53,519 nt of DNA from Acidobacteriota bacterium (GCA_016178075.1 JACOUA010000042.1:1-53519), one strand, 5' to 3'; positions 2,579 through 26,767 are shown, numbered from the stretch's first letter. The notes: generated by a model not told the origin, from the letters alone. A program made the numbers and translations.

Positions 2579-3553
2579 ATGCGTTATTCGAGACGCGAAT
2601 TCGGGAAGCTCGCCCTGGCAGGTCTCCCCGCCTCCTGGGCGATCGCGAACAGCCCGCTGTCGGCGCAAGCGAGCATCGATTCCAAGATCAACGGCGTCCA
2701 GATCGGCGCCATCACCTACAGCTTCCGCACCATGCCGAACGCCGAGGACATCATCAAAGCCTACGTCACGATCGGTCTTGGCGAAATGGAGCTGATGTCC
2801 AACCATGCCGAAGCGCTCGCGGGCGCCCCGAGCAGTGGAGGCGGCGGCCGTGGCCGCGGGACGCTGACCCCGGAACAGGAGGCCGCGCGGGAAGCCGCGG
2901 CGAAGGCCTCTCAGGAGTGGCGCATGTCCGCGACAGAGGCCACCTTCAAGCCGGTCCGGCAGAAGATCGAAGATGCCGGCATCGACCTGCGGCTGCTCTG
3001 CTACAACATGAACGTCCGCAATACCAAGGATGACGAGATCGAGTACGCCTTCATGATGGCGAAAGGGCTCGGCGTCAGCGCCATCTCGACCTCCACGCAG
3101 GTCAGCATGGCGAAACGCCTGGCGCCGTTCGCCGAGAAACACCGGATGCTGGTCGGCTTCCACGGCCACGCGAACGTCACGAATCCCGATGAAGTCGCGA
3201 CGCCCGAAAGCTTCGAGGCGGTCATGGCCGCATCGAAATACCTCGGGGCGAATCTCGACATCGGTCACTACACCGAGGCCGGCTATGACCCCGTCGCGTT
3301 CATCAAGCAGCACCACGCGCGCATCACGAACTTGCACTTGAAAGACAAGAAGAAGGCAACGAACGGCGGCGGCAACACGCCGTGGGGTGCAGGCGACACG
3401 CCGATCAAGGACGTGCTGCAGCTCCTGCGCAAGGAGAAGTGGCCGATCCCGGCGAACATCGAGTTCGAGTACGCAGGCGATCCGCTGGTGGAGATGCCGA
3501 AGTGCTTCCAGTTCTGCAAGGAGGCGCTCACGACCACCCCGCTCCCCTGGTGA
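2579..3553 (+). CDS. Tat-exported sugar phosphate isomerase/epimerase (xylose isomerase-like TIM barrel)
   Basis: SRREFGK Tat motif; ITYSFR, NLDIGH, LHLKD and NIEFEY motifs. Confidence 0.85.
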   Translation: MRYSRREFGKLALAGLPASWAIANSPLSAQASIDSKINGVQIGAITYSFRTMPNAEDIIKAYVTIGLGEMELMSNHAEALAGAPSSGGGGRGRGTLTPEQEAAREAAAKASQEWRMSATEATFKPVRQKIEDAGIDLRLLCYNMNVRNTKDDEIEYAFMMAKGLGVSAISTSTQVSMAKRLAPFAEKHRMLVGFHGHANVTNPDEVATPESFEAVMAASKYLGANLDIGHYTEAGYDPVAFIKQHHARITNLHLKDKKKATNGGGNTPWGAGDTPIKDVLQLLRKEKWPIPANIEFEYAGDPLVEMPKCFQFCKEALTTTPLPW

Positions 3554-3585: not shown

Positions 3586-4164
3586 GTGCTAGTATCCGGC
3601 GCATTCAACGAAATCGCGGCTCGAAACGACCAAACGCCACGGTACCAGGGCAGCGTGGAGGGGAGCTACGGCAACATCGCGAAGGCGGTCGTCCGTGACT
3701 GGCAGGTCAACGGCGTGTTCGGTGCCTTCAGCGGTACGCCCTTCACGGTGACGGCGAGTGGCACCGTGTTGAACACGCCCGGCAACACCCAGACGGCGGA
3801 TCTCGTCGGCACGGTGACGACACTTGGCAAGATTGGTTCGAGCGGCACGTACTTCGATCCTGCCGCCTGGGAGCAGCCAACCGGCATCCGCTTCGGGAAC
3901 ACCGGACGGAACCAGTTCCGCGGTCCGGGCGGGTGGAACCTCGACTTCTCGGTGTTCCGCTCGTTCCCGATGCGCGAGACGAGCCGGCTCGAGCTCCGGA
4001 TCGAAGCCGCGAGCGTCCTGAATCACCCGGTGTTCGCGAACCCGAACACCAATAGGAACAGCGGCACGTTCATGGTCATCTCGGGCATTGCGGGCGGCAC
4101 GGGGCTCACCAACGCCGCATACATCGAACGGCAGGTCCGGCTGGGACTGCGGTATAGCTTCTAG
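3586..4164 (+). pseudogene. C-terminal remnant of an Oar-like TonB-dependent receptor
   Basis: WQVNGV...SGTPFTV, FGNTGRNQFRGPG, NLDFSVFRSF, RQVRLGLRYSF with terminal Phe; only ~170 aa of a typically >1000-aa protein; no signal peptide. Confidence 0.8.
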
Positions 4165-4234: not shown

Positions 4235-5134
4235 ATGACGATCAGTTTCAAACGCGTCACGGTCGTCGTCGCGTGTTTGACCACAGGCGTTGGCATCGCC
4301 GCGCCGTCAGCCACACAATCGTCTCGGGGCGCGGCCCCGCCGGCCTTTGCGGCCATCCAGGGAGGACGCGGGAGCAGCGAACCAGCAGGCGTCGCACGAC
4401 TTCGAGCCTTCGATCAAGCAGCAGTCGTCCGTGGCCGAGCAGTCTTTGGCGGTCGCTGCGCCTCGTGCCACAGCTCCAGCGGGCGGGGTGGGGCGGCCCT
4501 TCCCGGGCCGGACTTGATCCGCTCCGTCCTCGTCTTGCAAGATCTCAACGGGAAACGGATTAGCGAATACCTGAAGGTCGTCGGGCCGACCAAACGCCAT
4601 CCCACCTTCAGCGACCTGACCGACGCGCAAGTCTCCGACCTCGCCACGCTTCTGCACCGCGAGATTACGTATGCGGCGGAGCGATCGAACTACAAGGTGC
4701 TGAACATCCTCACCGGAGATGCCAGGGCCGGCGAGGCGTATTTCCATGGCGCCGGTGGATGCCACACCTGTCATTCGGCGACCGGCGATCTGAGGGGCAT
4801 CGGCGCGAGACTCGATCCTCCGGTCATTCAGGGCCTGATCGTGTCAGGCGGCAGCGGAGGACGAGGGGGCCCCGAGTCCTCGACGCGCGCCGCCACGGCG
4901 ACCATCACGCTGCCTTCAGGTCAGACCGTCACGGGCGTTCTCGTTCGGCTGACCGACTTCGACATCACCATTCGAGATGCGTCGGGCGCGCCGCGTTCCT
5001 GGCTGCGCAACGGCGACAGTCCCAAGATTCACGTGAGCGATCCGCTTCAAGGCCATATCGATCTCCTGCCAAAGTACACGGATACGGACATCCATAACCT
5101 GACGGCCTACCTGGTCAGCCTGAAGGAGTCGTGA
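4235..5134 (+). CDS. Diheme c-type cytochrome (quinoprotein partner, copy 1)
   Basis: Signal peptide; CASCH and CHTCH heme motifs; paralog of 12416-13360. Confidence 0.85.
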   Translation: MTISFKRVTVVVACLTTGVGIAAPSATQSSRGAAPPAFAAIQGGRGSSEPAGVARLRAFDQAAVVRGRAVFGGRCASCHSSSGRGGAALPGPDLIRSVLVLQDLNGKRISEYLKVVGPTKRHPTFSDLTDAQVSDLATLLHREITYAAERSNYKVLNILTGDARAGEAYFHGAGGCHTCHSATGDLRGIGARLDPPVIQGLIVSGGSGGRGGPESSTRAATATITLPSGQTVTGVLVRLTDFDITIRDASGAPRSWLRNGDSPKIHVSDPLQGHIDLLPKYTDTDIHNLTAYLVSLKES

Positions 5135-5141
5135 AACCAAG

Positions 5142-6797
5142 ATGAGCACGCGGCGAACGTTCGGGTCCCTGCTTCTGGCGGCACTGCCGGCGGTGCTTTC
5201 CGGACAGGGTCAAGGTCTCGATCCGTCCGTGCTGGGCAAGCCGCCGGTTGATGCCTGGCCGACGTATCATGGCGATTTCACGGGCCGGCGCTACAGCACG
5301 CTGAACCAGATCAACTCGTCCAACATCAAGACGCTGTCGCTGGCCTGGATCTACCGCGCCGACCCCTCGTTGGACGGTCCGAATTCGGGCGGCGAATACA
5401 AGCCGGGCGATCCTTACTACTGGGGCGGCCCTCCCACTAGCGTGACCATGAAGGCGACACCGTTGATGGTCAACGGCGTTCTCTATGTGTCGGCTCCGGA
5501 CCACGCGTATGCCGTCGATGCGCGCACCGGCAAGGAAACCTGGCACTATGCCTGGCGCACTCGCGGCGGCATCCACATCGGCAATCGCGGCATGGGGATG
5601 CACGGCACCTCCCTATTTTTCGAGACCCCCGACTGCTATCTCGTCTCGCTCGACGCGGCCACGGGCCAGGAACGCTGGCACAAAGAGATTGCCGACGTGA
5701 GGCAGCAATACTTCTGCACGCCGGCACCGATCGTCATCAAGAACCACGTCATCGTGGGCATCGGCGGCGATTCCCTCGACGTGCAGGGTTATCTGGAATC
5801 GCGCGATCCGGAGACAGGCGACCTCGAGTGGCGCTGGTACACGACGCCGCAGAAGATGGACGACGTGGGCTCCGACACGTGGCCGGATGTGTACTCCATG
5901 ACCCACGGCGGGGGTATGACGTGGCAGCCGCCGACCTACGATCCCGAGCTGAACCTCATCTATGTGCCGACCGGCAATCCGAATCCGGTGTTCGCCCCGC
6001 AGAGCCGCAAGGGCGACAATCTCTTTACCTGCTCCATCGTCGCCTTGAACGCCGATACGGGAAGGATGGTGTGGTTCTTCCAAACCTCGCCGCACGACAC
6101 ACACGATTGGGACAGCACGCAGGTTCCTGTGCTGTTCGACGCGACGATCGACGGTCAGCCGCGCAAGCTGCTGGCACAGGCGGCGCGAAACGGATACTTC
6201 TTTCTGCTGGATCGCACCAATGGCAAGAGCCTGCTGACGGTCCCCTACGCAGATTTCATGAATTGGTCGCTGGGCGTGAACGCCAAGGGGCAGCCGATCC
6301 CCGATCCGAAGAAAGACCCGACGGTCGACGGCGTGCTGGTCTCGCCGGGCTCGGCGACCAACTGGCCGCCGCCAAGCTACAGCCCGCAGACCGGGCTCTT
6401 CTATGTTGGCACGTCGCAGGGCTACAGCCTGAACTACCTCACCGACACCGACGAACATCCGCAAGGTTTTGGCGGCGGGAGCGTCGGCGGTGGCGGAAGT
6501 GGCGGCCGGACGAACTCCCTCAAGGCCATCGACCCGAAGAGCGGCAAAATGGTGTGGCGACACCCGCTGTCGCAGGGGGGCGTGATGGGCCTGCTGAGCA
6601 CAGCCGGCGGCCTGCTGTTCGGCAGCGACGGCTCGGGCAATTTCGTCGCCTATGATGCCGCGACCGGTCACCCGCTCTGGCATGCGGGGCTCCTGTCGAA
6701 CCCGAGCAATGGGCCGACGACCTACATGCTCGACGGTCGCCAGTTCGTGGTGATCGGCGCCGGGGATTGCCTCTACGCCTTTACACTGGCTCAGTAG
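5142..6797 (+). CDS. PQQ-type beta-propeller dehydrogenase, acido-empty-quinoprotein group A-like (copy 1)
   Basis: WPTYHGD...RYSTL, GNRG, YDPELNLIY, TGNPNP, GDNLFT, PHDTHDWD, RNG and TNWPP motifs; signal peptide. Confidence 0.85.
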   Translation: MSTRRTFGSLLLAALPAVLSGQGQGLDPSVLGKPPVDAWPTYHGDFTGRRYSTLNQINSSNIKTLSLAWIYRADPSLDGPNSGGEYKPGDPYYWGGPPTSVTMKATPLMVNGVLYVSAPDHAYAVDARTGKETWHYAWRTRGGIHIGNRGMGMHGTSLFFETPDCYLVSLDAATGQERWHKEIADVRQQYFCTPAPIVIKNHVIVGIGGDSLDVQGYLESRDPETGDLEWRWYTTPQKMDDVGSDTWPDVYSMTHGGGMTWQPPTYDPELNLIYVPTGNPNPVFAPQSRKGDNLFTCSIVALNADTGRMVWFFQTSPHDTHDWDSTQVPVLFDATIDGQPRKLLAQAARNGYFFLLDRTNGKSLLTVPYADFMNWSLGVNAKGQPIPDPKKDPTVDGVLVSPGSATNWPPPSYSPQTGLFYVGTSQGYSLNYLTDTDEHPQGFGGGSVGGGGSGGRTNSLKAIDPKSGKMVWRHPLSQGGVMGLLSTAGGLLFGSDGSGNFVAYDAATGHPLWHAGLLSNPSNGPTTYMLDGRQFVVIGAGDCLYAFTLAQ

Positions 6798-6838
6798 CGA
6801 AGCTTCGCTTCGTTACTAGGCGGTTCCCCTTCACGGAC

Positions 6839-8029
6839 ATGTACGGACGGTTCGGCGCCGCGGCGGTGCTGGCGCTTCTCCCGATCGTGTCTCCTGCGGC
6901 CGCGCAGACGACGCTGCCGCCGCTTCCTCGTCTCGCGCTCGACGTCTACCCCGCGTCCGCCCGCGACGCCGTCTCACGCGCACACCGACGCGCGTCCGCA
7001 CGATCCACCGACCCGGACGCCGTGGGCGCGCTCGGCCGGATGCTCCATGCGTGGGAGCGGTGGAGCGCTGCACACGAAGCGTACGCGAGGTCGCAGGTGC
7101 TCGCGCCGCGCGTATTCGAGTGGCACTACCTGGACGCGGTCGTGCTGCAGCGCCTCGCACGACATGACGAAGCCGCTCGGCGGCTGCGGGAAGCGCTGGC
7201 GGTCTCGCCGGGTTACCTGCCGGCACGCCTGAAGCTCGCCGAAGCGCTGCTCGAGACCGGCGAGCTCGAGGAGGCCAGGCCTTTGTTCGAAGTACTGACC
7301 GGCGAGCCGGCGTGCGAGCCCGCGGCCCATCTCGGGCTCGGACGCATCGAGGCCGCTGAGGGCCGCCACGACGCGGCCATCCCTCATTTGCAGCACGCTC
7401 TTGCGCTGGTCCCCGAATTCGGCGCCGCGCACGAAGCGGCGCTCGCTCGCGACCCGTCGTTCGCCCAGGCGCACGCGAACCTGATCACGCTGTATGGCCG
7501 CGCACGCAACTGGATCAAGGCCGAAGAACACTACCGGGCCGTCGTGGCATTGGGGGTCAATCTGGGCGACGCTCACTACGATTACGGCGTGCTGCTTGGC
7601 CTGCAAGAGAAGTGGGACCGCGCGGCGGAGGCCTATCAGCAGGCGCTCGCCGTCAATCCGCAGCACGCCGAGGCCCACAACAATCTTGGCCAGACGCTCG
7701 AGCGCGAGCAAAACTTCGACGCGGCGGCCGCGGCGTACCGACACGCCGTCGACAGTCAACCGGCCTTCCGGCTCGCGCGGTTCAATCTGGGTCGCGTGCT
7801 CCTCGCGCTCGGTCGTGCGCAGGAGGCCATCGTGGAACTCGAGAAGCTGACCCAGCCACGCGACGCCGAGGCGCCGCGCTATCTCTTTGCGCTCGCCAGC
7901 GCGTACGTCAGGTCTGGCGACAAAGACAGAGGGATCACGTGGGCCACGGAAGCCAGGCGACTGGCCCTGGAGCACGGACAGCACGACCTCGCAGCGGCGA
8001 TCGAACGCGACCTCGCGCGGTTGAAATGA
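6839..8029 (+). CDS. Secreted TPR-repeat protein (probable in-frame internal deletion near 7430)
   Basis: Multiple TPR motifs (AHYDYG, AHNNLG, ARFNLG); ATGA overlap with the next gene. Confidence 0.8.
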   Translation: MYGRFGAAAVLALLPIVSPAAAQTTLPPLPRLALDVYPASARDAVSRAHRRASARSTDPDAVGALGRMLHAWERWSAAHEAYARSQVLAPRVFEWHYLDAVVLQRLARHDEAARRLREALAVSPGYLPARLKLAEALLETGELEEARPLFEVLTGEPACEPAAHLGLGRIEAAEGRHDAAIPHLQHALALVPEFGAAHEAALARDPSFAQAHANLITLYGRARNWIKAEEHYRAVVALGVNLGDAHYDYGVLLGLQEKWDRAAEAYQQALAVNPQHAEAHNNLGQTLEREQNFDAAAAAYRHAVDSQPAFRLARFNLGRVLLALGRAQEAIVELEKLTQPRDAEAPRYLFALASAYVRSGDKDRGITWATEARRLALEHGQHDLAAAIERDLARLK

Positions 8030-9804
8030 GCGGACGCGCCGTGACTCCTCCGGTCCTGTGCGTCGCCGCGGCAACGCTCGCCGCGCTGGGCGTGGTGCCC
8101 GTGTGGGGCCAACGAGGATCCAAGAGCCCTACACGGCACTCGCCGGCCGCCGAGTCGATCTTCATCGAGTCGGCCTCCGCCACCGGTCTCGCGTTCACGC
8201 ACGTGAATGGCGCCACCGGACGCTACTACATGGCCGAGCCGATGGGCGCCGGCGTCGCGCTGTTCGACTACGACAACGACGGCGACCTCGACGTCTTTCT
8301 CGTGCAGGGCGGCGCGCTCGGGCCGGGGGCCGCACCCAGAGGCCAGGCGGCCGCCCCCGGACCGCGCGGTCGCGAGCCGGTCGCCAGTCGTCTCTTTCGC
8401 AACGATCTCACGATCGATGCGAACGGCCGCCGCACGCTGCGCTTTACCGATGTGACGGAGCGCGCCGGGGTCGGTCTGCGCGCGTACGGCATGGGCGCGG
8501 CCGTCGCCGATTACGACAACGACGGCGACCTCGACCTGTTCGTCGCCTCATTCGGCCCCGAGACGCTCTATCGCAACAACGGCGACGGGACCTTCGCCGA
8601 CGTGACGACCCCCGCGGGCGTGAGCGACCCGCTCTGGAGCACCAGCGCCGCGTTCCTTGACTACGATCGGGACGGCGACCTCGATCTGTTCGTCGCCAAC
8701 TACCTGGATTTCACGGTGGCGGGCAACAAGCTGTGCCACGATGCCGTGGGGGCACGAGACTACTGCAGTCCACGCGCGTATCGACCCGCTCCCGATCGCT
8801 TGTACCGTAACGAGGGCAACGGTCGGTTCACCAACGTCACCGAGGCCGCGGGGATCAGCAAGGCGGACGGTGCGGGCCTTGGCGTCGCGACCGGCGACTA
8901 CAACGGCGACGGGTGGCTCGACCTCTACGTCGCCAACGACGCGACGCCAAACCAGCTCTGGATCAACCGGCACGATGGGACGTTCGCCGACGAGGGGCTG
9001 CTCTCCGGGTCGGCCCTGAGCGCGATCGGCAATCCCGAGGGCAGCATGGGTATCGCATCCGGCGACTTCGACCTCGATGGCGACGAAGATCTGTTCGTCA
9101 CGAACATCGCCGGTGAGACCTTCGTGCTGTACGTGAACGACGGGCGTGGCAACTTCGAGGACGCGCGGACCAGGACGGGGCTTGCGCTCCCCACCGCGGC
9201 ACTCACCGGCTTCGGCACCGACTGGCTCGACTACGACAACGATGGATGGCTCGATCTCTTCGTCGCCAATGGCGCCGTCAACATCGTCGAGGCGCAACGG
9301 GGGGAACCGTTCCCGTTCCGCATGAAGAATCAGCTGTTCCGCAATACCGGGGCTGGACGGTTCGAGGAGACGAGCGCGCTGGCAGGTCCCGCGTTCGCGC
9401 GCGCCGAGATCGGCCGCGGCGCGAGCTTCGGCGACATCGACAATGACGGGGACGTCGACATCATCGTCACGAACAACAACGGGCCTGTGAGGCTGCTCCT
9501 CAATCAGACCGGCGGGCGGCATCACTGGCTCGACGTCCGGCTCGATCAGGGCCCCGGCAATCGTTTCGCGTTCGGGGCACGGATCGGCGTGGAGCGTACC
9601 GGACGGCCCACGCTATGGCGGCGCGTCAGGACTGACGGCAGCTATCTCTCCGCGAGCGATGTGCGTGTCCACTTCGGCCTCGGTTCGTCATCAGCCGTCT
9701 CGGCGGTCGTCGTCCAGTGGCCAGACGGGGATCGCGAGAGCTGGACCAAGGTCAGCACCGATCGGCTGGTGACGCTCGCTCGCGGCGCCGGCGCGAAGCC
9801 ATGA
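8026..9804 (+). CDS. CRTAC1/ASPIC-UnbV family FG-GAP repeat protein
   Basis: Many DYDNDGDLD repeats; C-terminal SYLS...VHFGLG...VQWPDG ASPIC/UnbV domain. Confidence 0.9.
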   Translation: MSGRAVTPPVLCVAAATLAALGVVPVWGQRGSKSPTRHSPAAESIFIESASATGLAFTHVNGATGRYYMAEPMGAGVALFDYDNDGDLDVFLVQGGALGPGAAPRGQAAAPGPRGREPVASRLFRNDLTIDANGRRTLRFTDVTERAGVGLRAYGMGAAVADYDNDGDLDLFVASFGPETLYRNNGDGTFADVTTPAGVSDPLWSTSAAFLDYDRDGDLDLFVANYLDFTVAGNKLCHDAVGARDYCSPRAYRPAPDRLYRNEGNGRFTNVTEAAGISKADGAGLGVATGDYNGDGWLDLYVANDATPNQLWINRHDGTFADEGLLSGSALSAIGNPEGSMGIASGDFDLDGDEDLFVTNIAGETFVLYVNDGRGNFEDARTRTGLALPTAALTGFGTDWLDYDNDGWLDLFVANGAVNIVEAQRGEPFPFRMKNQLFRNTGAGRFEETSALAGPAFARAEIGRGASFGDIDNDGDVDIIVTNNNGPVRLLLNQTGGRHHWLDVRLDQGPGNRFAFGARIGVERTGRPTLWRRVRTDGSYLSASDVRVHFGLGSSSAVSAVVVQWPDGDRESWTKVSTDRLVTLARGAGAKP

Positions 9805-9957
9805 ATCGGCCGCGAAGCCGCGAAGGGATCTCCTGAACCGGTTCTCATCGTGACGGATTGCCGCCTCGAGCTCAGCACGCGTTCGGGTCAGATTCGGTGG
9901 CGCCCGTCGGAAGACCGTCGGGACGTGCGCTCTTGCGCATGGTGGGTACCGCTGCCG

Positions 9958-10749
9958 CTATCTTGGCGGCATCGCCGCGAATGTGTTCTCGATGTTCTCC
10001 AGCACCGCGAGCGTCGAGCGGACCGCGGCCTGGATGTAGCGCTCGCCCAGCTCCGGCGTGGATGTGCGGGCGTCGCCCCACGTACCTGATTTCGTGGCCC
10101 AGTACACCGACCCGGGCGAGGTGAAGAAGAACGCCGTATGCACCGGGGCGGCGTTCACGGTGAACTCCGGGAACGGCGGAAACTCGGTATTCGCGCGCTC
10201 GAGATCGACGAGCTTGGGGTTGATCGCGAGCACGGCCGATGTTTCCGCCGCGTTCGCGTGCAGCCCGGTCTGCAGGCTGAAGAACTCCGCGGCTTCCTCC
10301 CCGGTGAGCCCGTCCCAGTGGTTGATCGGAAACGCCTTGACGCCCTGCGGCATTCTGTCCGCGGCCTCGGCGCACCCATATGCGATCGCGTAGGTATTGT
10401 CGTAGTGCCCGTTCAAAAAAATGATGCGCTTGAACCCAGACGCCGCGAACGACGCACAGAGATCCGCGATGAGGGCCATGAAGGTTGGAATCCGAATGTG
10501 CACGAGCCCGGTGAAGCCGACGTGCGGATATGACAAGGCGTAGTTGATCGGCGGTGCGACCAGCGCGCCGATCTGCGGCGCCACGCGCCGCCCCACTTCC
10601 TGCGGGATCAGCACGTCGGTCAGGAGCGGTCCGTGCGGGCCGTGTTGCTCGGTGGCCCCGGTAGGAATGATGACCGTGTGATGCGTCTTGAGAAACGCTT
10701 CGACTTCGGGATTCGTCATCTCCCCAAGGAATACCGTGGATGGCTTCAT
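9958..10749 (-). CDS. Creatininase/creatinine amidohydrolase family protein
   Basis: GATEQHGPH...TD, NGHxxN, HANAAETS and GTWGD motifs; starts 8 bp after the quinoprotein stop. Confidence 0.9.
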   Translation of the reverse strand: MKPSTVFLGEMTNPEVEAFLKTHHTVIIPTGATEQHGPHGPLLTDVLIPQEVGRRVAPQIGALVAPPINYALSYPHVGFTGLVHIRIPTFMALIADLCASFAASGFKRIIFLNGHYDNTYAIAYGCAEAADRMPQGVKAFPINHWDGLTGEEAAEFFSLQTGLHANAAETSAVLAINPKLVDLERANTEFPPFPEFTVNAAPVHTAFFFTSPGSVYWATKSGTWGDARTSTPELGERYIQAAVRSTLAVLENIENTFAAMPPR

Positions 10750-10757
10750 CGGGCCAC

Positions 10758-12419
10758 TTACTCAGCCAATGTAAACGAGAACAATGTGTCGCCGGCGGCC
10801 ACGAGCAGATACTGGTGGCCGTCGAGCAGGTAGGTCTGCGGCGCGTTCGACACCGAGCCGATTCGGGAGTGCCACAGGATCTTGCCGTTCGCAGAGTTGT
10901 ACGCCACCAGGTTCCCGCTGATGTCGCCGCCAAACAACAGCCCGCCGGCCGTCGTGAGCAGACCGCTGGCACCCCCGCCGCCCGTGCCCGGATAGCGGTG
11001 TTTCCAGACCGTCTTTCCCGTCTTGTAGTCGATCGCCGCCAGATAGCTGCCCATGGACCCGACGCCCGCCTCTTCCTTGCCGCCGAGCCCCATCGCCCCG
11101 CGGGGATCGGTTTCGGTCAGGTAGTACATGGCGTAGGTCTCGCTGAGGGGGACGTAGAACAGGCCCGTCTGGGGGCTGAAGCTCGGGGGCGGCCAGTTGG
11201 TCGCGCCGCCGTTGTTGCCCGACACGAGCGCGCCGCCGATGTGGAAATCTTTCGCGGGATTGCGGATCGGCTGGCCCTTCTCGTTAAGACCTCTCGCCCA
11301 GTTCACCGTGTCGGAGAATTGACTGGTCACCAAGTGCTCGCCGGTGACCCGATCGAGCACGAAGAAATAGCCGTTGCGCCCGGCAGTCATGACGAGCTTG
11401 CGCGGCCGCCCGTTGAATCCCGCATCCACGAGCACCGGCGTTTGCGCCGAGTCCCAGTCATGGGTGTCATGCGGCGATGTCTGGTAGTACCAGGCCATCT
11501 TCCCGGTGTTGACGTTGACCGCGACGATGGAACACGTATAAAGATTGTCGCCCTCGCCGCGGCTCTGCGAGGTGTAGGCCGGCGTCGGGTTTCCGGTCCC
11601 GAAAATGTAAAGGTTCGTCTCGGGATCGTACGAACCCGGGTTCCACGCATGCCCGCCGCCGTGGCTCGCCGCATCGAGATCCTTCCAGGTCTCGAGTCCC
11701 GGATCGCCCTCCTTCATCGGCACGGTGTAGAACTTCCACTGAACCGACCCGTCCTCGGGATCGAATGACTGGAGGAAGCCGGGCGCGTCGAGATCGTTGC
11801 TGGTTCCGACCAGGACATGATTCCCCACGACAATCGGCGCCATCGTCGAGAAGTACTGCTGATCGAAGTCGGAGATCTCCTTGTGCCAGCGCTCCTTGCC
11901 CGTCTTCGCGTCGAGACTGACCAGATAGTTGTCGGGTGTTTCCAGGTACAGCCAGTCGCGGTACATCCCGAGACCGCGATTGCCGATATGGGTGCCGCCT
12001 CTGGTCGTCCAGAAGTAATGCCAGATCTCGCGTCCGTCGCGCGCGTCGATGGCCCACACATTGTCGGGCGCCGACACGTACAGGACCCCGTTGACCTGCA
12101 GGATCGAGCCCCTGATCGTGGAGCCGGCGTATTCGGTGGTGCCGACGCCGCCCACGATGGAGGGACCTCCACCCCGGCCGCCGCGGCCGCCGGTCAGCCG
12201 AGCGAACCACGCCAGCGTCAGATGCTTCACGGTGGACTGGTTGATCTCGGTCAACGCGCTGAACCGCTTGCCGGAATAGTCACCCGAGTAGACGGGCCAC
12301 GACTCGGAAAGCGGCTTGAGCAGTTCCCTGGGGTCCAACGCGAGGCTGTTCTGGCCCGCGAGGACAGCGGGGATCGCGCACATCGACAGGACGAACAGGA
12401 GTTTGGTGTGGCCTGTCAT
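10758..12419 (-). CDS. PQQ-type beta-propeller dehydrogenase, acido-empty-quinoprotein group A-like (copy 2)
   Basis: Same motif set as copy 1; ATG 12419 overlaps the cytochrome stop (ATGA). Confidence 0.85.
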   Translation of the reverse strand: MTGHTKLLFVLSMCAIPAVLAGQNSLALDPRELLKPLSESWPVYSGDYSGKRFSALTEINQSTVKHLTLAWFARLTGGRGGRGGGPSIVGGVGTTEYAGSTIRGSILQVNGVLYVSAPDNVWAIDARDGREIWHYFWTTRGGTHIGNRGLGMYRDWLYLETPDNYLVSLDAKTGKERWHKEISDFDQQYFSTMAPIVVGNHVLVGTSNDLDAPGFLQSFDPEDGSVQWKFYTVPMKEGDPGLETWKDLDAASHGGGHAWNPGSYDPETNLYIFGTGNPTPAYTSQSRGEGDNLYTCSIVAVNVNTGKMAWYYQTSPHDTHDWDSAQTPVLVDAGFNGRPRKLVMTAGRNGYFFVLDRVTGEHLVTSQFSDTVNWARGLNEKGQPIRNPAKDFHIGGALVSGNNGGATNWPPPSFSPQTGLFYVPLSETYAMYYLTETDPRGAMGLGGKEEAGVGSMGSYLAAIDYKTGKTVWKHRYPGTGGGGASGLLTTAGGLLFGGDISGNLVAYNSANGKILWHSRIGSVSNAPQTYLLDGHQYLLVAAGDTLFSFTLAE

Positions 12420-13360
12420 TTCACGGTCACCAGGAAGGCCGTCAGGTTGTGAATCTCTTCGTCGGTGTAGGTGCTCAGCAGGTTTCGATGCGGCGTCAGA
12501 GGGTCGTGGATCTCCACCGCCGGCGTGTCGCCGTCCCGGCGAAACGTGCGATCGGTGCCGTCCGCCAGCGTGAGGGTCACGTTGAAGTCGTCGATGCGAC
12601 GCAGCCGGCCTTCGACCTTTGGTCCCGTAGGCAGCGTGACCGTGACCGTCGTCGGAGACACGTTCGTCACGTTCTCGCCGCCTCCGCGTCCCCCCGCCTG
12701 CCCTGAGCCTGTCGAAGGGCGGCCACCGGGCATGAGCCATGTTTGTTGGAGCTGCCGCGGATCGGTGACCCTCGCGCCGAAGCCCTTGAGATCGCTTGTG
12801 AGTGAATGACACGCGCCGCACTTCGCCTTGAAGACCGCTTCCCCGGCCCGCGCGTCGCCGACGACGATGCTCGGAGGCCGCTCGCGGGAGATGTCGTAGC
12901 CACCGACCCGGAAGCTGTGAATGAAGGTGGCAATCTCGGCAATCTGTGCCGTGGTGAGATCGCCCTGCTTCGGCATGCCGCGGTCCGGCCGGCCGTTCTG
13001 CACGACGGGCGCGATCAATTCACCATTCTGATCGTTCAAGACGAGCGCGGAACGAAGCAGGCTCGGCGCCGTGGCACCCCGGGCGTCTGCGCCGTGGCAA
13101 AACGCGCAGTTCACGCTGTAGAGTGCCTTGCCGCGCTCCAGGATGACAGGATCCGCCGGTGGACGTACAGGGTAGGCGCCGCCACCACCACCACCGCCGC
13201 CGGTCCCTCGCCCACCGCGGCCGCCCGGACCCGCAGGCGTCGGTGTGGGTGGAGTTTGCGGCGGGGGCTGGGGAGGAGTCTGTGCCATCAGTCCGATGGC
13301 GGCAACCATCGTGATGGCCAGCAGGATCTCGGCGGCAGCGATCTTCTCGTTGATGGGCAA
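12416..13360 (-). CDS. Diheme c-type cytochrome (quinoprotein partner, copy 2); start uncertain
   Basis: CAFCH and CGACH motifs, GMP distal Met, Pro/Gly-rich linker. Confidence 0.85.
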   Translation of the reverse strand: MPINEKIAAAEILLAITMVAAIGLMAQTPPQPPPQTPPTPTPAGPGGRGGRGTGGGGGGGGAYPVRPPADPVILERGKALYSVNCAFCHGADARGATAPSLLRSALVLNDQNGELIAPVVQNGRPDRGMPKQGDLTTAQIAEIATFIHSFRVGGYDISRERPPSIVVGDARAGEAVFKAKCGACHSLTSDLKGFGARVTDPRQLQQTWLMPGGRPSTGSGQAGGRGGGENVTNVSPTTVTVTLPTGPKVEGRLRRIDDFNVTLTLADGTDRTFRRDGDTPAVEIHDPLTPHRNLLSTYTDEEIHNLTAFLVTVK

Positions 13361-13381
13361 GGAGGCAGCATAATACCAAGA

Positions 13382-14470
13382 ATGCGATTCGATTTTGAGA
13401 GGCCGACCCGGAATCTGGCGAGACGCGGCCGGCGGGTCGCGGTCGTTCTGACGCTCGCCGCCCTAGCCTGCGGGCGATCCTCTCCCGAGCGAGCTGCCGA
13501 GACCCGCCTGTACGTCTCGGACGAAACCGGCGGCAACGTGGTCGTCATCGATCCGGTCGCCGCACGGGTCGTGACACGCATCGCCGTCGGCAAGCGGCCG
13601 CGCGGCATCCGCGCGTCCCGCGACGGCGCGCGACTTTTCGTGGCGCTCTCGGGATCACCCATCGCCGGGCCCGGCGTCGATGAGTCCTCTCTTCCACCGG
13701 CCGACCGTTCCGCGGACGGCATCGGCGTGGTGGATCTTGCGACGCTCACGCTGGTTCGGACGTTCACGAGCGGTCCGGATCCGGAGTCCTTCGATCTCTC
13801 GCCCGACGGGAAGACGCTCTACGTGTCGAACGAGGACACGGCGGAAGTGTCCGCGGTCGACGTGGCCACCGGGACGATTCGAGGCCGCGTCAGCGTCGGT
13901 GAGGAGCCGGAAGGCGTCACGGTCAGGCCCGGCGGGCGCGAGGTCTACGTCACGTCTGAAGGAACCAACGAGGTCACGGCCATCGACACCACGACCTTGC
14001 AGGTGGTGGCCCGCATTCCCACGGCAGCGAGGCCGCGCGCGGTTGTGTTCACGACGGATGGCGCGACGGCCTTCGTGACGAACGAGAACGCGGGCGTCCT
14101 GACGGTCGTCGACGCCGCCGCGCACAAGGCGTCCGGCACCGTTCAGATTCCCCGCACCGAGGGGACGCCGACGCCCCCGCGGCCGATGGGAATGGTGCTG
14201 TCTGCGGATGGACGAGAGGTCTTCACCTCGCTCGGGCGTGCGGGCTCGGTGGCCGTGATCGACGTGGCGGGTCGCCGAGTGGCGCGCTCCATCGAACGTG
14301 TCGGCGCGCGACCGTGGGGGATCGGGGTCAGTGGCGACGGTCGCAAGCTTTATACAGCGAACGGTCCGTCCGGCGACGTCTCGATCATCGACGTCGCCAC
14401 GGGAACCGTGGAGGCGCGTGTCACCACCGGCGGAAGTCCCTGGGGACTCATCGTCGTGGATGCTCGCTGA
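13382..14470 (+). CDS. YVTN-type beta-propeller lipoprotein (resembles PQQ-catabolism-associated propellers)
   Basis: LAC lipobox; repeated LYVSNE/VYVTSE/FVTNE blades, VGKRPRG, VGEEPEG. Confidence 0.8.
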   Translation: MRFDFERPTRNLARRGRRVAVVLTLAALACGRSSPERAAETRLYVSDETGGNVVVIDPVAARVVTRIAVGKRPRGIRASRDGARLFVALSGSPIAGPGVDESSLPPADRSADGIGVVDLATLTLVRTFTSGPDPESFDLSPDGKTLYVSNEDTAEVSAVDVATGTIRGRVSVGEEPEGVTVRPGGREVYVTSEGTNEVTAIDTTTLQVVARIPTAARPRAVVFTTDGATAFVTNENAGVLTVVDAAAHKASGTVQIPRTEGTPTPPRPMGMVLSADGREVFTSLGRAGSVAVIDVAGRRVARSIERVGARPWGIGVSGDGRKLYTANGPSGDVSIIDVATGTVEARVTTGGSPWGLIVVDAR

Positions 14471-14504: not shown

Positions 14505-16535
14505 TCACAAGCCGAAAACCTCGGGCTGCCAGCGCAGCCCGAGCTCGCTCGGCGGCCCCATGAACCCCAGAAGCGCGGACGAGGCCACGACCGCCGGGTT
14601 CGCGAGATACCCCTCTCCGCCGACCCCCATCCGATTCTGCCAGTTCCGGTTGAACGAGGTGATCGCGCGCTGCCCCTTGTACAGCGCGTCGGGCCCCTGC
14701 CCAAAGCACGGGCCGCACCAGGACTGCCGAATCGCGCCGCCGACCGACCGAAACACGTTCGCGATCGACTCCCCGCCGAGGCGCGGATCGGGGTGCTCGA
14801 TTTGCTGACGAACGCCGCCCGATCCGGGAAAAATCACGAAATCTTTGGCCGCTTTCCTGACGCCCTGCTCGCGCGCCGCGCGCACGACCAGCGCGGCGCT
14901 CAGCAGATCGTCATAGCTGCCGTTCGTGCAGGAGCCGATGAGCGCCTTGTCGAACGTGATCCGCTCGCGGGCGACTTCATCCGCCGGGAACGCGTTGCCG
15001 GGGCTGAACGGCTTCGCGATCATCGGCACCACCGCGTCCAGCCGCAGCTCTTCGTCCAGCTCGTAGCGGCTATCGTCACCCGGGCGCACGACCGGATATG
15101 GCAGATCGGTCATGCCCTTTGCCCGGTACCAGCCGAGCGTGATCTCGTCTGGGCCGAACACCCCGTTCTGGGCCTCGGCCTCGGCCATCATGTTCGCGAT
15201 CGTGTTGCGATAGGCGATGGGCAACTGTCGATCACGATCGACGAGCTCGACCGACATCCCCTGCGCCTGGCGCGCACCCCAGCGCCGCAGCAGCTCGAGC
15301 ACGATGTCTTTCCCGCTGACCCACGGCTGGAGCCTTCCGGCGAACACGACGCGGCGCTGCTTCGCGAGCGTGAAGTAAATGTGCCCCGTGGCCCATCCGA
15401 ACCCGAGCGTCGTCGAGCCGACGCCGATCCCGACCGCGCCGTACGCGCCATAGGCGCGGCTGTGCGAGTCCGCGCCCGGGATGAACTGGGCTGGCAGGAC
15501 CAGTCCCTGTTCGGGAAAGTAGAAGTGAAAGATGCCGTCGCCCGGGGTCGCATAGTACGGCTTCTCGATGCCGTGCGTGCGGGCGAACTCGTAACCGATT
15601 CGCGTCTGCCGGTCATCGTCTTCGCGGCCGGTGAAGACGAAGTGGTCGTTCGCGACAGCCGCCTGCCGTGGGTCGATCGTCTGACCGCCGGTGATCTGAT
15701 TGAACGTGTGGATCGCGAACGGCGCCGTGCCGTCCGAGGCGGGAAGCAGGTCGGCGTAGACCCTGAGCGTCGCGCCCGGCGTCACCTCCGCGTCCTTGTC
15801 CACCCGATGCGCCCACACGATCTGCTCGGTCGTGGTCATCCGGCGCGCGCGGTCCGGATCCGCCCAGTCGATCGACGGAATCCGCTCAACCGCCAACGGG
15901 AACTCGCGGCGCCCGACGGCGAAGATCCCGCCACTCTCGCGGATTTCTTCCTCCTTCGACGTTAGCGGGATCGGCGTGTAAGTCTTCTTCCGCGTCTCGT
16001 TCCGCAGCGTCCGCGTGGCGACGTCGAAGCTGAACGCGTCTCCGTCTTGCGCGTCGGTCACCGCTTCCGGACTCTGGACGACGTGCAGGCCAAGATTGAG
16101 CGCGTTGCGGCGGAAGATGTCGCCCATGTTCTGGCCGCAGACGACCACCAGCTCGAGGCCGACTTCCTCGGCCACGCCCTTCAGTCCGGCGGGGCTCATT
16201 TCGCGCGAGGATCCGATGGCAAACCGGTCCCCCGCGATGAGGAATGTCTCGCCGCGATGGACGCGCGCGCGAAAGCCCGGCATCAGATGGCGGAACGCGC
16301 CGGCCTTCCAGCGTTCATCGAGCGTGTCCAGACTTTCGGAGACGCAGTCGGAAGCGGGGGTGATCTGATCGGTATCGATCGCATCGAGCTTTCGCCCTGG
16401 GTTGCGCGGGTCCCAGAAGAGGAGGGCGCGACCTCGAACCATGCGGCTGGTCGCGGCCTGTGGTCCGATGGACGGCCGCGGAAGTGACTCGAGCGTGACG
16501 CCCGGTTTCAGTTGTACGGGCTTGATGCGGTGCAT
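14505..16535 (-). CDS. Aconitase-family [4Fe-4S] hydro-lyase, swivel (LeuD-like) domain fused N-terminal to a LeuC-like domain
   Basis: N-terminal IDTDQITP, FAIGSSRE, IFRRNALNLGL; then DH, GADSH, IGSCTNG, CGPCFG, NRNWQNRMG. Confidence 0.85.
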   Translation of the reverse strand: MHRIKPVQLKPGVTLESLPRPSIGPQAATSRMVRGRALLFWDPRNPGRKLDAIDTDQITPASDCVSESLDTLDERWKAGAFRHLMPGFRARVHRGETFLIAGDRFAIGSSREMSPAGLKGVAEEVGLELVVVCGQNMGDIFRRNALNLGLHVVQSPEAVTDAQDGDAFSFDVATRTLRNETRKKTYTPIPLTSKEEEIRESGGIFAVGRREFPLAVERIPSIDWADPDRARRMTTTEQIVWAHRVDKDAEVTPGATLRVYADLLPASDGTAPFAIHTFNQITGGQTIDPRQAAVANDHFVFTGREDDDRQTRIGYEFARTHGIEKPYYATPGDGIFHFYFPEQGLVLPAQFIPGADSHSRAYGAYGAVGIGVGSTTLGFGWATGHIYFTLAKQRRVVFAGRLQPWVSGKDIVLELLRRWGARQAQGMSVELVDRDRQLPIAYRNTIANMMAEAEAQNGVFGPDEITLGWYRAKGMTDLPYPVVRPGDDSRYELDEELRLDAVVPMIAKPFSPGNAFPADEVARERITFDKALIGSCTNGSYDDLLSAALVVRAAREQGVRKAAKDFVIFPGSGGVRQQIEHPDPRLGGESIANVFRSVGGAIRQSWCGPCFGQGPDALYKGQRAITSFNRNWQNRMGVGGEGYLANPAVVASSALLGFMGPPSELGLRWQPEVFGL

Positions 16536-25242: not shown

Positions 25243-26767
25243 TCACCTTCGTGTCATCGTGATCCCGACCGCCGCGCCGTCGGCCGATCGCCGGTCACAG
25301 CCCCCCTCCAGCATGTCGTTCTGTTTGTTGTAGACGATGACCTCGGCGGTGCCCTGGCTGCCTCCCGCTTGCAGCGTGTGCCCTTTGGCGGTCAGGAGTG
25401 CGACCGTGTCGGGCGAGAACCCGTTGCGCTCGTGCTGGATGCGATCCGGGAGCCACTGGTGATGGAACCGCGGTGCGTCGACGGCTTCCTGCGCGTTCAT
25501 GCCGAAATCGATCACGTTGACGATCGTTTCGAGCACGGTGTTGATGATCGTGCGGCCGCCGGGGCTCCCCGTCACCATGAAAAGCTCGCCATCCTTGGCG
25601 ATGATGGTCGGCGTCATGCTGGACAGCATGCGTTTGTGCGGCGCCGCCAGATTCGGCTCGGTGCCGATGAGCCCCTCGGCGGTCGTCAGGCCCGGACCGG
25701 CGTTGAAATCCCCCATCTCGTTGTTCAGCAGGAACCCGCCGCCGGCGACCCAGCCGACCGATCGGCATGTTGGCATTGAAATCCGGATCGCCGAGATATT
25801 GGGCGCGATCGGCATAGGCGCGCCGCATCGCTTCGGTCATCAGGTGGATGTTCGCCGCCGATCCGGCTCCGTTCGCCGCGAGGTCGTAGCCTTCCAGAAT
25901 GTTCAGCATCTCGATCAGCCCGACGCCGCCGGAGCTGATCGGCGGCATCGAGATGATGTCGTAGCCGCGATAGGTTCCACGGACGGGCGTCCGGATCTTC
26001 GCTTTGTACGCTTTCAGGTCCTCGCGCGTGATCAATCCACCGTTGGCCGCCATGTCTTTCTCGATGAGCAGGGCGGTCTCGCCTTCGTAGAAGCCCGCCG
26101 GCCCGAGCTCCGAGATTCGCTGGAGCGTGCGCCCCAGATCCGGCTGCTTGAGCATCTCGCCCGCCTCGTACGGCACGCCGGCCTTCGAGAACTGCGCGAC
26201 GGCCGCTGGCGATTTCCTCATCTGCGGCAGGATCCCCCTCAGTGAGCCGGCCAGCCCTTCGGTCACCTCGAATCCATCTCGCGCGAGCGCGATCGCGGGA
26301 TCGACCAGCCGTTTCCACGGCAGCTTGCCGTGCTCCTTCCATGCGAGGTGCAGGCCCGCCACGGTGCCGGGCACGCCAACCGACAGGTAGCTGTTGTGGT
26401 GCACGTTGGAATCGTACTTCCCGTCCTTGAGGAACATGGTCGGGGTCGACGTCGCCGGGGCGATCTCCCGGAAATCAATGGCGACCGGGTCGCCGGTGCG
26501 AGGACGGTAGACCATGAAGCCGCCGCCGCCGATATTGCCGGCGGTCGGATGCGTGACGGCCAGCGCGAACGCGGTCGCCACCGCCGCGTCGACGGCGTTC
26601 CCGCCGTCGCGGAGCACCGCCGCTCCCACGCGCGAAGCCACTTCGTTGACCGAGACGACCATGCCGCCCCGCGCGCGAACAGGGGTCGATGCCGCCTGGA
26701 GGATGGTGAGCGAGAAGACGGCGACGACAAACAGCGCGCCAGCAGCCCTGCTCGATCGGAGCGTCAT
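25243..26767 (-). pseudogene. ggt: Gamma-glutamyltransferase with internal deletion and frameshift at ~25751
   Basis: Large subunit (GGNAVDAAVA, GNIGGGGF, DFRE, PPISSGG, AYADR) ends at MPIGRL; small subunit resumes in another frame at VAGGGFLLNNEM...LSSMTP; TTH nucleophile segment absent. Confidence 0.85.

Follow-up and report, generated by a model that had tools for sequence, protein, structure and literature searches.

What does a bacterium do with two dehydrogenases of the pyrroloquinoline quinone (PQQ) type when the DNA around them holds no gene for making PQQ, and are such proteins working enzymes at all? This question is raised by a stretch of 53,519 nucleotides from an Acidobacteriota bacterium (GCA_016178075.1 JACOUA010000042.1:1-53519), the whole of which is called the window here. 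The window corresponds to contig C51 of a genome assembled from a metagenome (4.96 Mb, 457 contigs, completeness 87.28%), and it has a GC content of about 0.63-0.68. Within it lie two paralogous pairs of genes for a dihaem cytochrome c and a quinoprotein in convergent orientation, found at or near the places where a first-pass annotation, made from the sequence alone, had put them. Both quinoproteins belong to TIGR04528, the “acido-empty-quinoprotein group A” family. We consider it probable, with moderate confidence, that each pair forms a two-subunit periplasmic quinohaemoprotein dehydrogenase which works with PQQ and a lanthanide, and that the PQQ is scavenged. The four genes are the following:

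4235..5134, + strand: dihaem cytochrome c, partner of quinoprotein 1 (module 1); two CxxCH motifs, Pfam Cytochrom_C.
5142..6797, + strand: eight-bladed PQQ-type dehydrogenase, TIGR04528 group A copy 1; TIGR04528 758.9 bits.
10758..12419, - strand: eight-bladed PQQ-type dehydrogenase, TIGR04528 group A copy 2; TIGR04528 769.8 bits; starts MTGHTK...
12416..13360, - strand: dihaem cytochrome c, partner of quinoprotein 2 (module 2); two CxxCH motifs, PF13442 65 bits.

The start of quinoprotein 2 and the stop of cytochrome 2 overlap by 4 bases. Searched with the hidden Markov model of the acido-empty-quinoprotein family, both quinoproteins pass its curated cut-off (758.9 and 769.8 against 650 bits), and they span the model almost whole (positions 1-493 and 2-493). 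Five group A copies above this cut-off are present in the host genome, three of them outside the window, together with about seven further full-length alcohol-dehydrogenase-type paralogues and some partial or glucose-dehydrogenase-like matches. Between the two modules the quinoproteins are 54% identical and the cytochromes 38-39% over about 250 amino acids. The nearest public relatives of the quinoproteins are Acidobacteriota, mostly Bryobacterales and Terriglobia, and among solved structures copy 1 matches 1kb0 (E 9e-79) and the lanthanide enzyme PedH (6zcw, E 2e-70). The leader of copy 1 contains the string RRTF; export by twin-arginine translocation (Tat) was ruled out for the quinoprotein, with RRx[FLIV] in just 5 of 82 family members, and Sec export is the rule predicted for the family. 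The family name does not occur in the full text of the literature searched. Among the eight-bladed PQQ enzymes of soil bacteria there are many clades with a lanthanide motif that are still uncharacterised, as the relevant parts of a preprint (10.64898/2026.07.10.737718) and of PMC10875860 describe, and the trees or supplements of these two works might already place the TIGR04528 clade. We regard the window quinoproteins as a variant, so far uncharacterised, of an enzyme kind that is known, and in their working they are most like a quinohaemoprotein dehydrogenase.

The active site was tallied over 86 family members (the 5 host copies and 81 from related loci), with positions numbered as in copy 1 and placed by alignment to the solved 1kb0 and PedH (6zcw). 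The roles given to these positions (stacking and bonding of PQQ, metal ligands, catalytic base) are those known for them from the structural literature. W261, N279 and R349 are each present in all 86 members, as are H318, D319, H321, D322, W323 and D324 of the motif PHDTHDWD; R149 and W408 are found in 85 and N407 in 84. A conserved D-x-L-D contributes D210 (86/86) and D213 (85/86). The catalytic Asp D322, the Asn ligand N279, the stacking Trp W261 and the quinone-adjacent Arg R349 align with their counterparts in both reference structures, and D322 and D324 together align with the D-F-D of PedH. Where D324 sits, the calcium-type enzymes 1kb0, 1kv9 and 1yiq have a Thr (D-Y-T or D-F-T). The position held by Glu in 1kb0 and by Gln in PedH is a Lys in 77 members and an Arg in 4. 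Copy 2 shows the same active-site pattern. The second-Asp motif of lanthanide enzymes is described both in the preprint just mentioned and in PMC8546591, and in the section of the latter that deals with it the extra Asp coordinates the lanthanide. Among representatives of clusters at 50% identity, nearly all relatives have the DxD, and several other clades are without the vicinal Cys-Cys pair or have Asp in place of the Glu ligand; thus group A is one of several such clades. Judged by these residues, the TIGR04528 family is not degenerate, with its lanthanide-type active site intact.

Each quinoprotein also comes with a cytochrome. A dihaem cytochrome gene lies directly upstream, on the same strand, of all five group A copies in the host. 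Related loci were taken as the best 80 of at least 594 related stretches in a collection of species-representative genomes, and a cytochrome homologue is found just upstream and co-oriented in 79 of them, the exception (L059) starting at a contig end. In addition, the two proteins occur as natural fusions: among the best 150 cluster representatives, 45 are at least 620 amino acids long, and in nine of these the propeller is fused to an N-terminal dihaem cytochrome, whose homology with the cytochromes of the window extends over 195-256 residues. One such fusion (P0009, 839 amino acids) shares 44.5% identity with cytochrome 2 and 47% with quinoprotein 1. Because the fusions come from nine separate clusters, a gene-calling error is unlikely to be their source. 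When cytochrome 1 and quinoprotein 1 are folded together, the interface score ipSAE comes to 0.90, 0.91 and 0.90, while the best of three controls stays at 0.00; in calibration 58 of 80 solved complexes and 2 of 110 mismatched pairs attained this mark, and our runs differ from that calibration in their custom alignments and in the two haems that ride along. The runs have at least 91% of their contacts in common, with a partner pLDDT (predicted local distance difference test) of at least 87. The modelled interface has about 140 contacts and brings the propeller loop 210-213 of the active site together with D241, F242, H274, D283 and H287 of the cytochrome. The view of the first-pass annotation that each quinoprotein has its own electron acceptor is upheld by synteny, fusions and complex model alike.

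The cytochrome itself was followed in an alignment of 38 sequences. The two CxxCH motifs (C75/C78/H79 and C176/C179/H180) are invariant throughout, and so are D241, F242 and H274. After haem 1, the Met of the “GMP” motif is kept in cytochrome 2 and missing in a subgroup; in cytochrome 1 (residues ~118-123) the motif reads “RHP”, with a His, which points to haem 1 being ligated by two His and having a lower potential. The second haem domain has the invariant H274 and no conserved Met. The AlphaFold2 model of cytochrome 1 has a mean pLDDT of 79.8 and shows helical cytochrome domains, with five strands (221-268) set between helices. According to Foldseek its best match is Kustd1711 (7zs0/7zs1, E ~1e-5), followed by cytochrome cL and other small cytochromes, and Hfq/Sm proteins match its beta unit. 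As modelled, cytochrome 1 has a class I domain at its N terminus and, after it, a second haem domain into which an Hfq-like beta unit is inserted.

Where the PQQ would come from is the remaining part of the question. The window has no pqq gene, as was claimed at first pass for pqqA-E. No match to PqqC exists in the 87.28% complete host genome, where PqqB and PqqE reach only weak and generic matches far from their cut-offs (80.2 against 245 bits and 64.6 against 381 bits, respectively). The PqqC search is shown to work by 3 of 41 relatives that score above its cut-off. The name of TIGR04528 implies a host without PQQ biosynthesis, the family having been called “empty” because PQQ synthesis was missing from the first genomes in which it was met. 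In a sample of the phylum (301 genomes, all but the host's own at least 90% complete), 19 carry TIGR04528, 14 have PqqC above cut-off, and seven have both. PqqC is thereby found in 7 of 19 carriers and in 7 of 282 non-carriers, about 15 times more commonly in carriers, or by genus in 6 of 13 and 3 of 179; since the sampled genomes are interrelated these counts are not independent, and they express a tendency rather than a test. The carrier counts were confirmed for 13 carriers, and one of the seven non-carrier genomes with PqqC (G085) is unpublished. In one carrier (G011), pqqB, pqqC, a small open reading frame (ORF; D) and pqqE stand in a row, above cut-offs. PqqC is missing from 12 carriers of 98-100% completeness, two of which (G265 and G284) are single contigs. 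Most carriers cannot make PQQ, yet the family accompanies PQQ synthesis far above background. As a marker of Acidobacteria that lack PQQ, TIGR04528 holds for these 12 carriers and fails for the other seven. Because PqqC is commoner in carriers than in non-carriers, “empty” is a misnomer; enrichment of PqqC in carriers most of which lack it fits a PQQ enzyme that in many hosts is supplied by scavenging.

Scavenging of PQQ is documented for Gram-negative bacteria in the part of PMC12124388 that treats it, and nearly all PQQ-type paralogues of the host carry D-x-D. Two of the classical ones (on C124 and C344a) have the Cys-Cys, the Glu and the DxD all present, and because of them the host cell needs PQQ in any case. 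Of the two cofactor sources offered at first pass, scavenged PQQ is upheld as the one that fits this host best; the invariance of the PQQ-contact and catalytic residues (n = 86) and the distribution of PqqC speak against a different cofactor.

On the mechanism that these data suggest, each module would be a two-subunit periplasmic quinohaemoprotein dehydrogenase whose propeller is exported by Sec. The eight-bladed propeller would bind PQQ and a trivalent lanthanide, the predicted metal ligands being D210, D213, N279, D322 and D324 (copy 1), with D322 as the putative catalytic base. An alcohol-type (hydroxyl) substrate, probably a sugar, glycoside or polyol, would be oxidised, and its electrons would pass to the dihaem cytochrome encoded just upstream, which would be stably docked over the active-site funnel. 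This tight docking may stand in for the route through the Cys-Cys ring. The cytochrome would then feed the respiratory chain, and in some loci the product may be processed further by a periplasmic TIM-barrel enzyme. The host, itself making no PQQ, would import it from outside along a path that does not involve PqqU. A stricter version, in which these are obligate heterodimeric lanthanide quinohaemoproteins oxidising periplasmic sugars or glycosides, with PQQ entering through an importer other than PqqU, is put forward as a tentative proposal that we think more doubtful than likely.

Several observations weigh against the reading of the pairs as PQQ/lanthanide enzymes, in addition to the cautions already attached to the complex model and to the genome counts. 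The vicinal Cys-Cys is missing in 86/86 members, where the loop is shorter, and the “pccd” segment of PedH that holds it is an insertion relative to the TIGR04528 family. According to the passage of PMC8546591 that cites Mennenga 2009, the Cys-Cys ring is needed for electron transfer from ExaA to cytochrome c550. The position of the canonical metal-ligand Glu (Glu185 of 1kb0) is occupied by S211, between D210 and D213, so that copy 1 reads GGDSLD where GAEYG is expected. The DxD motif predicts the use of a lanthanide without proving it. With TIGR03075, the model for methanol/ethanol PQQ dehydrogenases, the two quinoproteins score 409.1 and 388.1 bits, under the cut-off of 480.05. The modelled interface is no more conserved than the rest of the proteins (quinoprotein 0.64 against 0.73; cytochrome 0.60 against 0.62), and the complex model could have been helped by its likeness to quinohaemoproteins of known structure in which a cytochrome sits on the propeller (1kb0, 8gy2). 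Finally, the importer PqqU was not found in the 87% complete host: the best match of the E. coli query has 35.2 bits (E 3e-9) over residues 14-184, and this sole match region is the plug domain. The lack of a match agrees with the distribution given in the relevant section of PMC12124388, where PqqU among Acidobacteria is found in Vicinamibacteria only.

The metal-site observations lend themselves to another account, in which the enzyme is the same and Ca2+-dependent: the second Asp and the D-x-L-D would bind Ca2+ as in classical alcohol dehydrogenases (ADHs) and methanol dehydrogenases, and lanthanides would have no part. The metal loop is indeed unlike that of every characterised lanthanide enzyme, with S211 in the place of the Glu, and no lanthanide uptake gene was seen, although no search was aimed at one. 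However, all 86 members have D324, whose place in the alignment is that of the lanthanide-specific Asp of PedH and of a Thr in the Ca-type 1kb0, 1kv9 and 1yiq, and a larger number of carboxylates (D210, D213, D322 and D324) would suit a trivalent ion. We therefore judge calcium dependence to be unlikely. The propellers might also work without PQQ, either with another redox cofactor or as non-catalytic partners of the cytochrome. The 12 of 19 carriers without PqqC, the failure to find PqqU in the host, the loss of both Cys-Cys ring and Glu ligand in 86/86 and the scores under the TIGR03075 cut-off all lean this way; but the residues that stack against or bond PQQ (W261, R149, N279, R349, N407/W408) and the catalytic Asp are conserved, PqqC is about 15-fold commoner in carriers, and the classical PQQ enzymes of the same genome need PQQ anyway, which makes propellers without PQQ very improbable. 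A particular form of this idea, in which hosts lacking both pqq and PqqU use a different cofactor, scavenged or protein-derived, which would be bound together with a lanthanide and connected to the docked dihaem cytochrome, is a long shot of much the same order; if true, it would mean new cofactor chemistry in the quinoprotein fold. The host is least of all likely to be an ordinary PQQ producer whose pqq operon lies in the unassembled 13%, for although the assembly is incomplete and in 457 contigs and PqqC occurs in 7/19 carrier genomes of the phylum, a single operon would need to fall wholly in the missing part, the host gives no PqqC match and only weak, generic PqqB and PqqE matches, a genome of the same genus (G001, 74% complete) is likewise without PqqC, and PqqC is found in just 1 of 10 same-order relatives that carry the TIGR04528 family.

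How the proposed PQQ/lanthanide dehydrogenases relate to known systems can be seen from the following comparisons. The best PDB matches are the type II quinohaemoprotein ADHs of Comamonas testosteroni (1kb0) and Pseudomonas putida (1kv9, 1yiq), with E values of 9e-79 to 4e-72 over about 500 residues. They have in common with the window proteins the eight-bladed PQQ propeller, a c-type cytochrome acceptor, the Asn, the catalytic Asp and the stacking Trp. In the type II enzymes, however, a single-haem cytochrome domain is fused C-terminally, whereas in the window the cytochrome is a separate dihaem protein encoded upstream (and fused N-terminally in relatives); the Cys-Cys ring, Glu ligand and Ca-type D-Y-T of the type II enzymes are all missing from the window proteins. 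With the lanthanide enzymes PedH/ExaF and XoxF (6zcw, 6zcv, 6dam, 4mae) the window quinoproteins share the D-x-D at the catalytic Asp and the Arg in the RNG motif, while being less similar to them than to the type II ADHs; PedH has the “pccd” insert with its Cys-Cys ring plus the Glu, and the window protein is without the insert and has S211 in the Glu place. The partners of XoxF, PedH and ExaF are small single-haem cytochromes (XoxG, c550). These enzymes are likewise PQQ propellers with a dedicated periplasmic cytochrome c, as stated in the part of PMC8546591 concerned with them. The third system is Kustd1711 of Kuenenia stuttgartiensis, which has two cytochrome c domains and a five-stranded Hfq-like “nose” inserted in the second (described in the relevant section of PMC11791136; 7zs0-7zs2). 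The model of window cytochrome 1 resembles it in having two CxxCH domains and an Hfq-like beta domain in the second, at 17-20% identity and a low overall TM-score of 0.27-0.30. In Kustd1711 both haems are His/Met and the gene belongs to the anammox nitrite oxidoreductase cluster (same section), whereas cytochrome 1 has His for Met after haem 1 and a second domain without a conserved Met. As to PQQ supply, E. coli has a PQQ-type enzyme, glucose dehydrogenase, without pqq genes, as the host has, and takes up PQQ by PqqU (PMC12124388, in the part on uptake), of which no orthologue was found in the host.

Around the two pairs stand further genes, among them the tetratricopeptide repeat (TPR) and CRTAC1/ASPIC genes, the creatininase, the YVTN lipoprotein and the TonB-receptor remnant that the first-pass annotation had listed, all of which are present:

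2579..3553, + strand: Tat-exported xylose-isomerase-like TIM-barrel enzyme (AP_endonuc_2); PF01261 40.9 bits; twin-arginine motif SRREFGK in the leader.
3586..4164, + strand: 3' remnant of a TonB-receptor-like outer-membrane barrel gene; 192 amino acids; OMP_b-brl_4 (PF25183), positions 680-833 of 838 only.
6767..8029, + strand: TPR-repeat protein; matches TPR families.
8026..9804, + strand: secreted FG-GAP/ASPIC-UnbV (CRTAC1-like) protein; PF13517 177 bits, PF07593 59 bits; signal peptide.
9958..10749, - strand: cytoplasmic creatininase-family hydrolase, third gene of operon 2; PF02633 205 bits.
~13382..14470, + strand: YVTN/YncE-like seven-bladed propeller lipoprotein, possible accessory; TIGR03866 243.5 bits (cut-off 287.3), TIGR02276 repeats; leader ends ...LAALACG.

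What is conserved in the related loci is the cytochrome-quinoprotein pair. Homologues of the ASPIC and creatininase proteins occur in 0 of the 80 loci each, a TPR homologue in one (weak) and a YVTN homologue in one. The ten-gene “island” was consequently ruled out as a functional unit, and with it goes the modular island of the first-pass annotation, of which only the pair is kept (5/5 own copies, 79/80 loci). The commonest further neighbour is the AP_endonuc_2 TIM barrel, which is among the nearest ORFs in 21 of the 80 loci: downstream in 11 by Pfam and in one more (L040) by tblastn, and upstream in nine. The TIM barrel of the window matches 9 of the 80 loci by tblastn, eight at 41-47% identity and one (L070) at 29%. 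In one locus (L031) cytochrome, quinoprotein, TIM barrel and YVTN follow in this order on one strand, the YVTN orthologue being 52% identical. ThuA is among the nearest ORFs in 4 of the 80. Elsewhere the neighbours include glycoside hydrolases (GH9, GH10, GH43 twice, GH106), an apiosidase-like protein and an arabinofuranosidase; sugar enzymes (galactarate/altronate dehydratase twice, gluconate 2-dehydrogenase subunit 3, PfkB, rhamnose mutarotase); and oxidoreductases (GMC and GFO/IDH/MocA). Such carbohydrate-flavoured neighbours hint at a sugar, glycoside or polyol substrate, a guess which, to the disadvantage of that part of the mechanism, rests on loose neighbourhoods in about a quarter of the loci.

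Other arrangements of the two genes are also met with. In two loci (L052, L078) a second group A propeller directly follows the first without a cytochrome of its own, in another (L100) there are two full cytochrome-propeller pairs, and in a fourth (L079) the pair is followed by a less closely related propeller that carries a single-haem cytochrome fused to its N terminus. Distant host paralogues on contigs C124, C344, C236 and C293 likewise have a cytochrome c gene directly upstream, in these cases with just one haem domain that matches.

For the individual neighbours in the window, a few details can be added. With the TIM-barrel gene extending to 3553, no room is left for the rest of the TonB-receptor-like gene; relatives of full length, about 1100 amino acids, stand near the cytochrome-quinoprotein pair in two loci (L082, L091). 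The creatininase-family protein does not reach the cut-offs of the creatininase, MftE and IolN models, and no signal peptide was found in it. The YVTN gene diverges from cytochrome 2, and their starts (ATG at 13382, + strand; TTG at 13360, - strand) are 21 bases apart, so that either each promoter lies inside the other gene or one of the starts is mis-set. In E. coli K-12 (NC_000913.3; L106:2964-6369), pqqU adjoins and diverges from yncE, whose product, like the lipoprotein encoded next to module 2, is a YVTN-type propeller with seven blades, and the name of TIGR03866 speaks of “PQQ-dependent catabolism-associated” propellers. By analogy, the idea may be entertained that YVTN-type propellers take part in PQQ handling.

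The group A family is common in the Acidobacteriota of soil and groundwater, with at least 594 related loci and five copies in this host genome alone. If the PQQ/lanthanide reading is true, “empty” is the wrong name for what would be working lanthanide/PQQ enzymes, and a large clade would be added to lanthanide biology. There would be an electron route from PQQ to cytochrome that is independent of the Cys-Cys ring, and the “nose” cytochrome of the Kustd1711 type would gain a defined enzyme partner. It would also become a sharper question how abundant soil bacteria without pqq and PqqU obtain their PQQ. Among the carriers in culture are those recorded as Terriglobus albidus DSM 26559 and Acidobacteria bacterium AB60.

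Eight sequencing runs contain the segment 4235-6797; all are of groundwater DNA, from two studies, one possibly being the source of the sequence, and no RNA run is among the runs listed. The remainder of the window holds housekeeping genes. An ORF of 190 amino acids (25243-25815, - strand) matches the gamma-glutamyltranspeptidase profile over positions 358-511 of 512 only, and is possibly a fragment or a short ORF call. In an aconitase-family ORF (14505-16535, - strand) the LeuD-like small subunit (residues 51-207) precedes the LeuC-like large subunit (residues 233-660), the two being fused.

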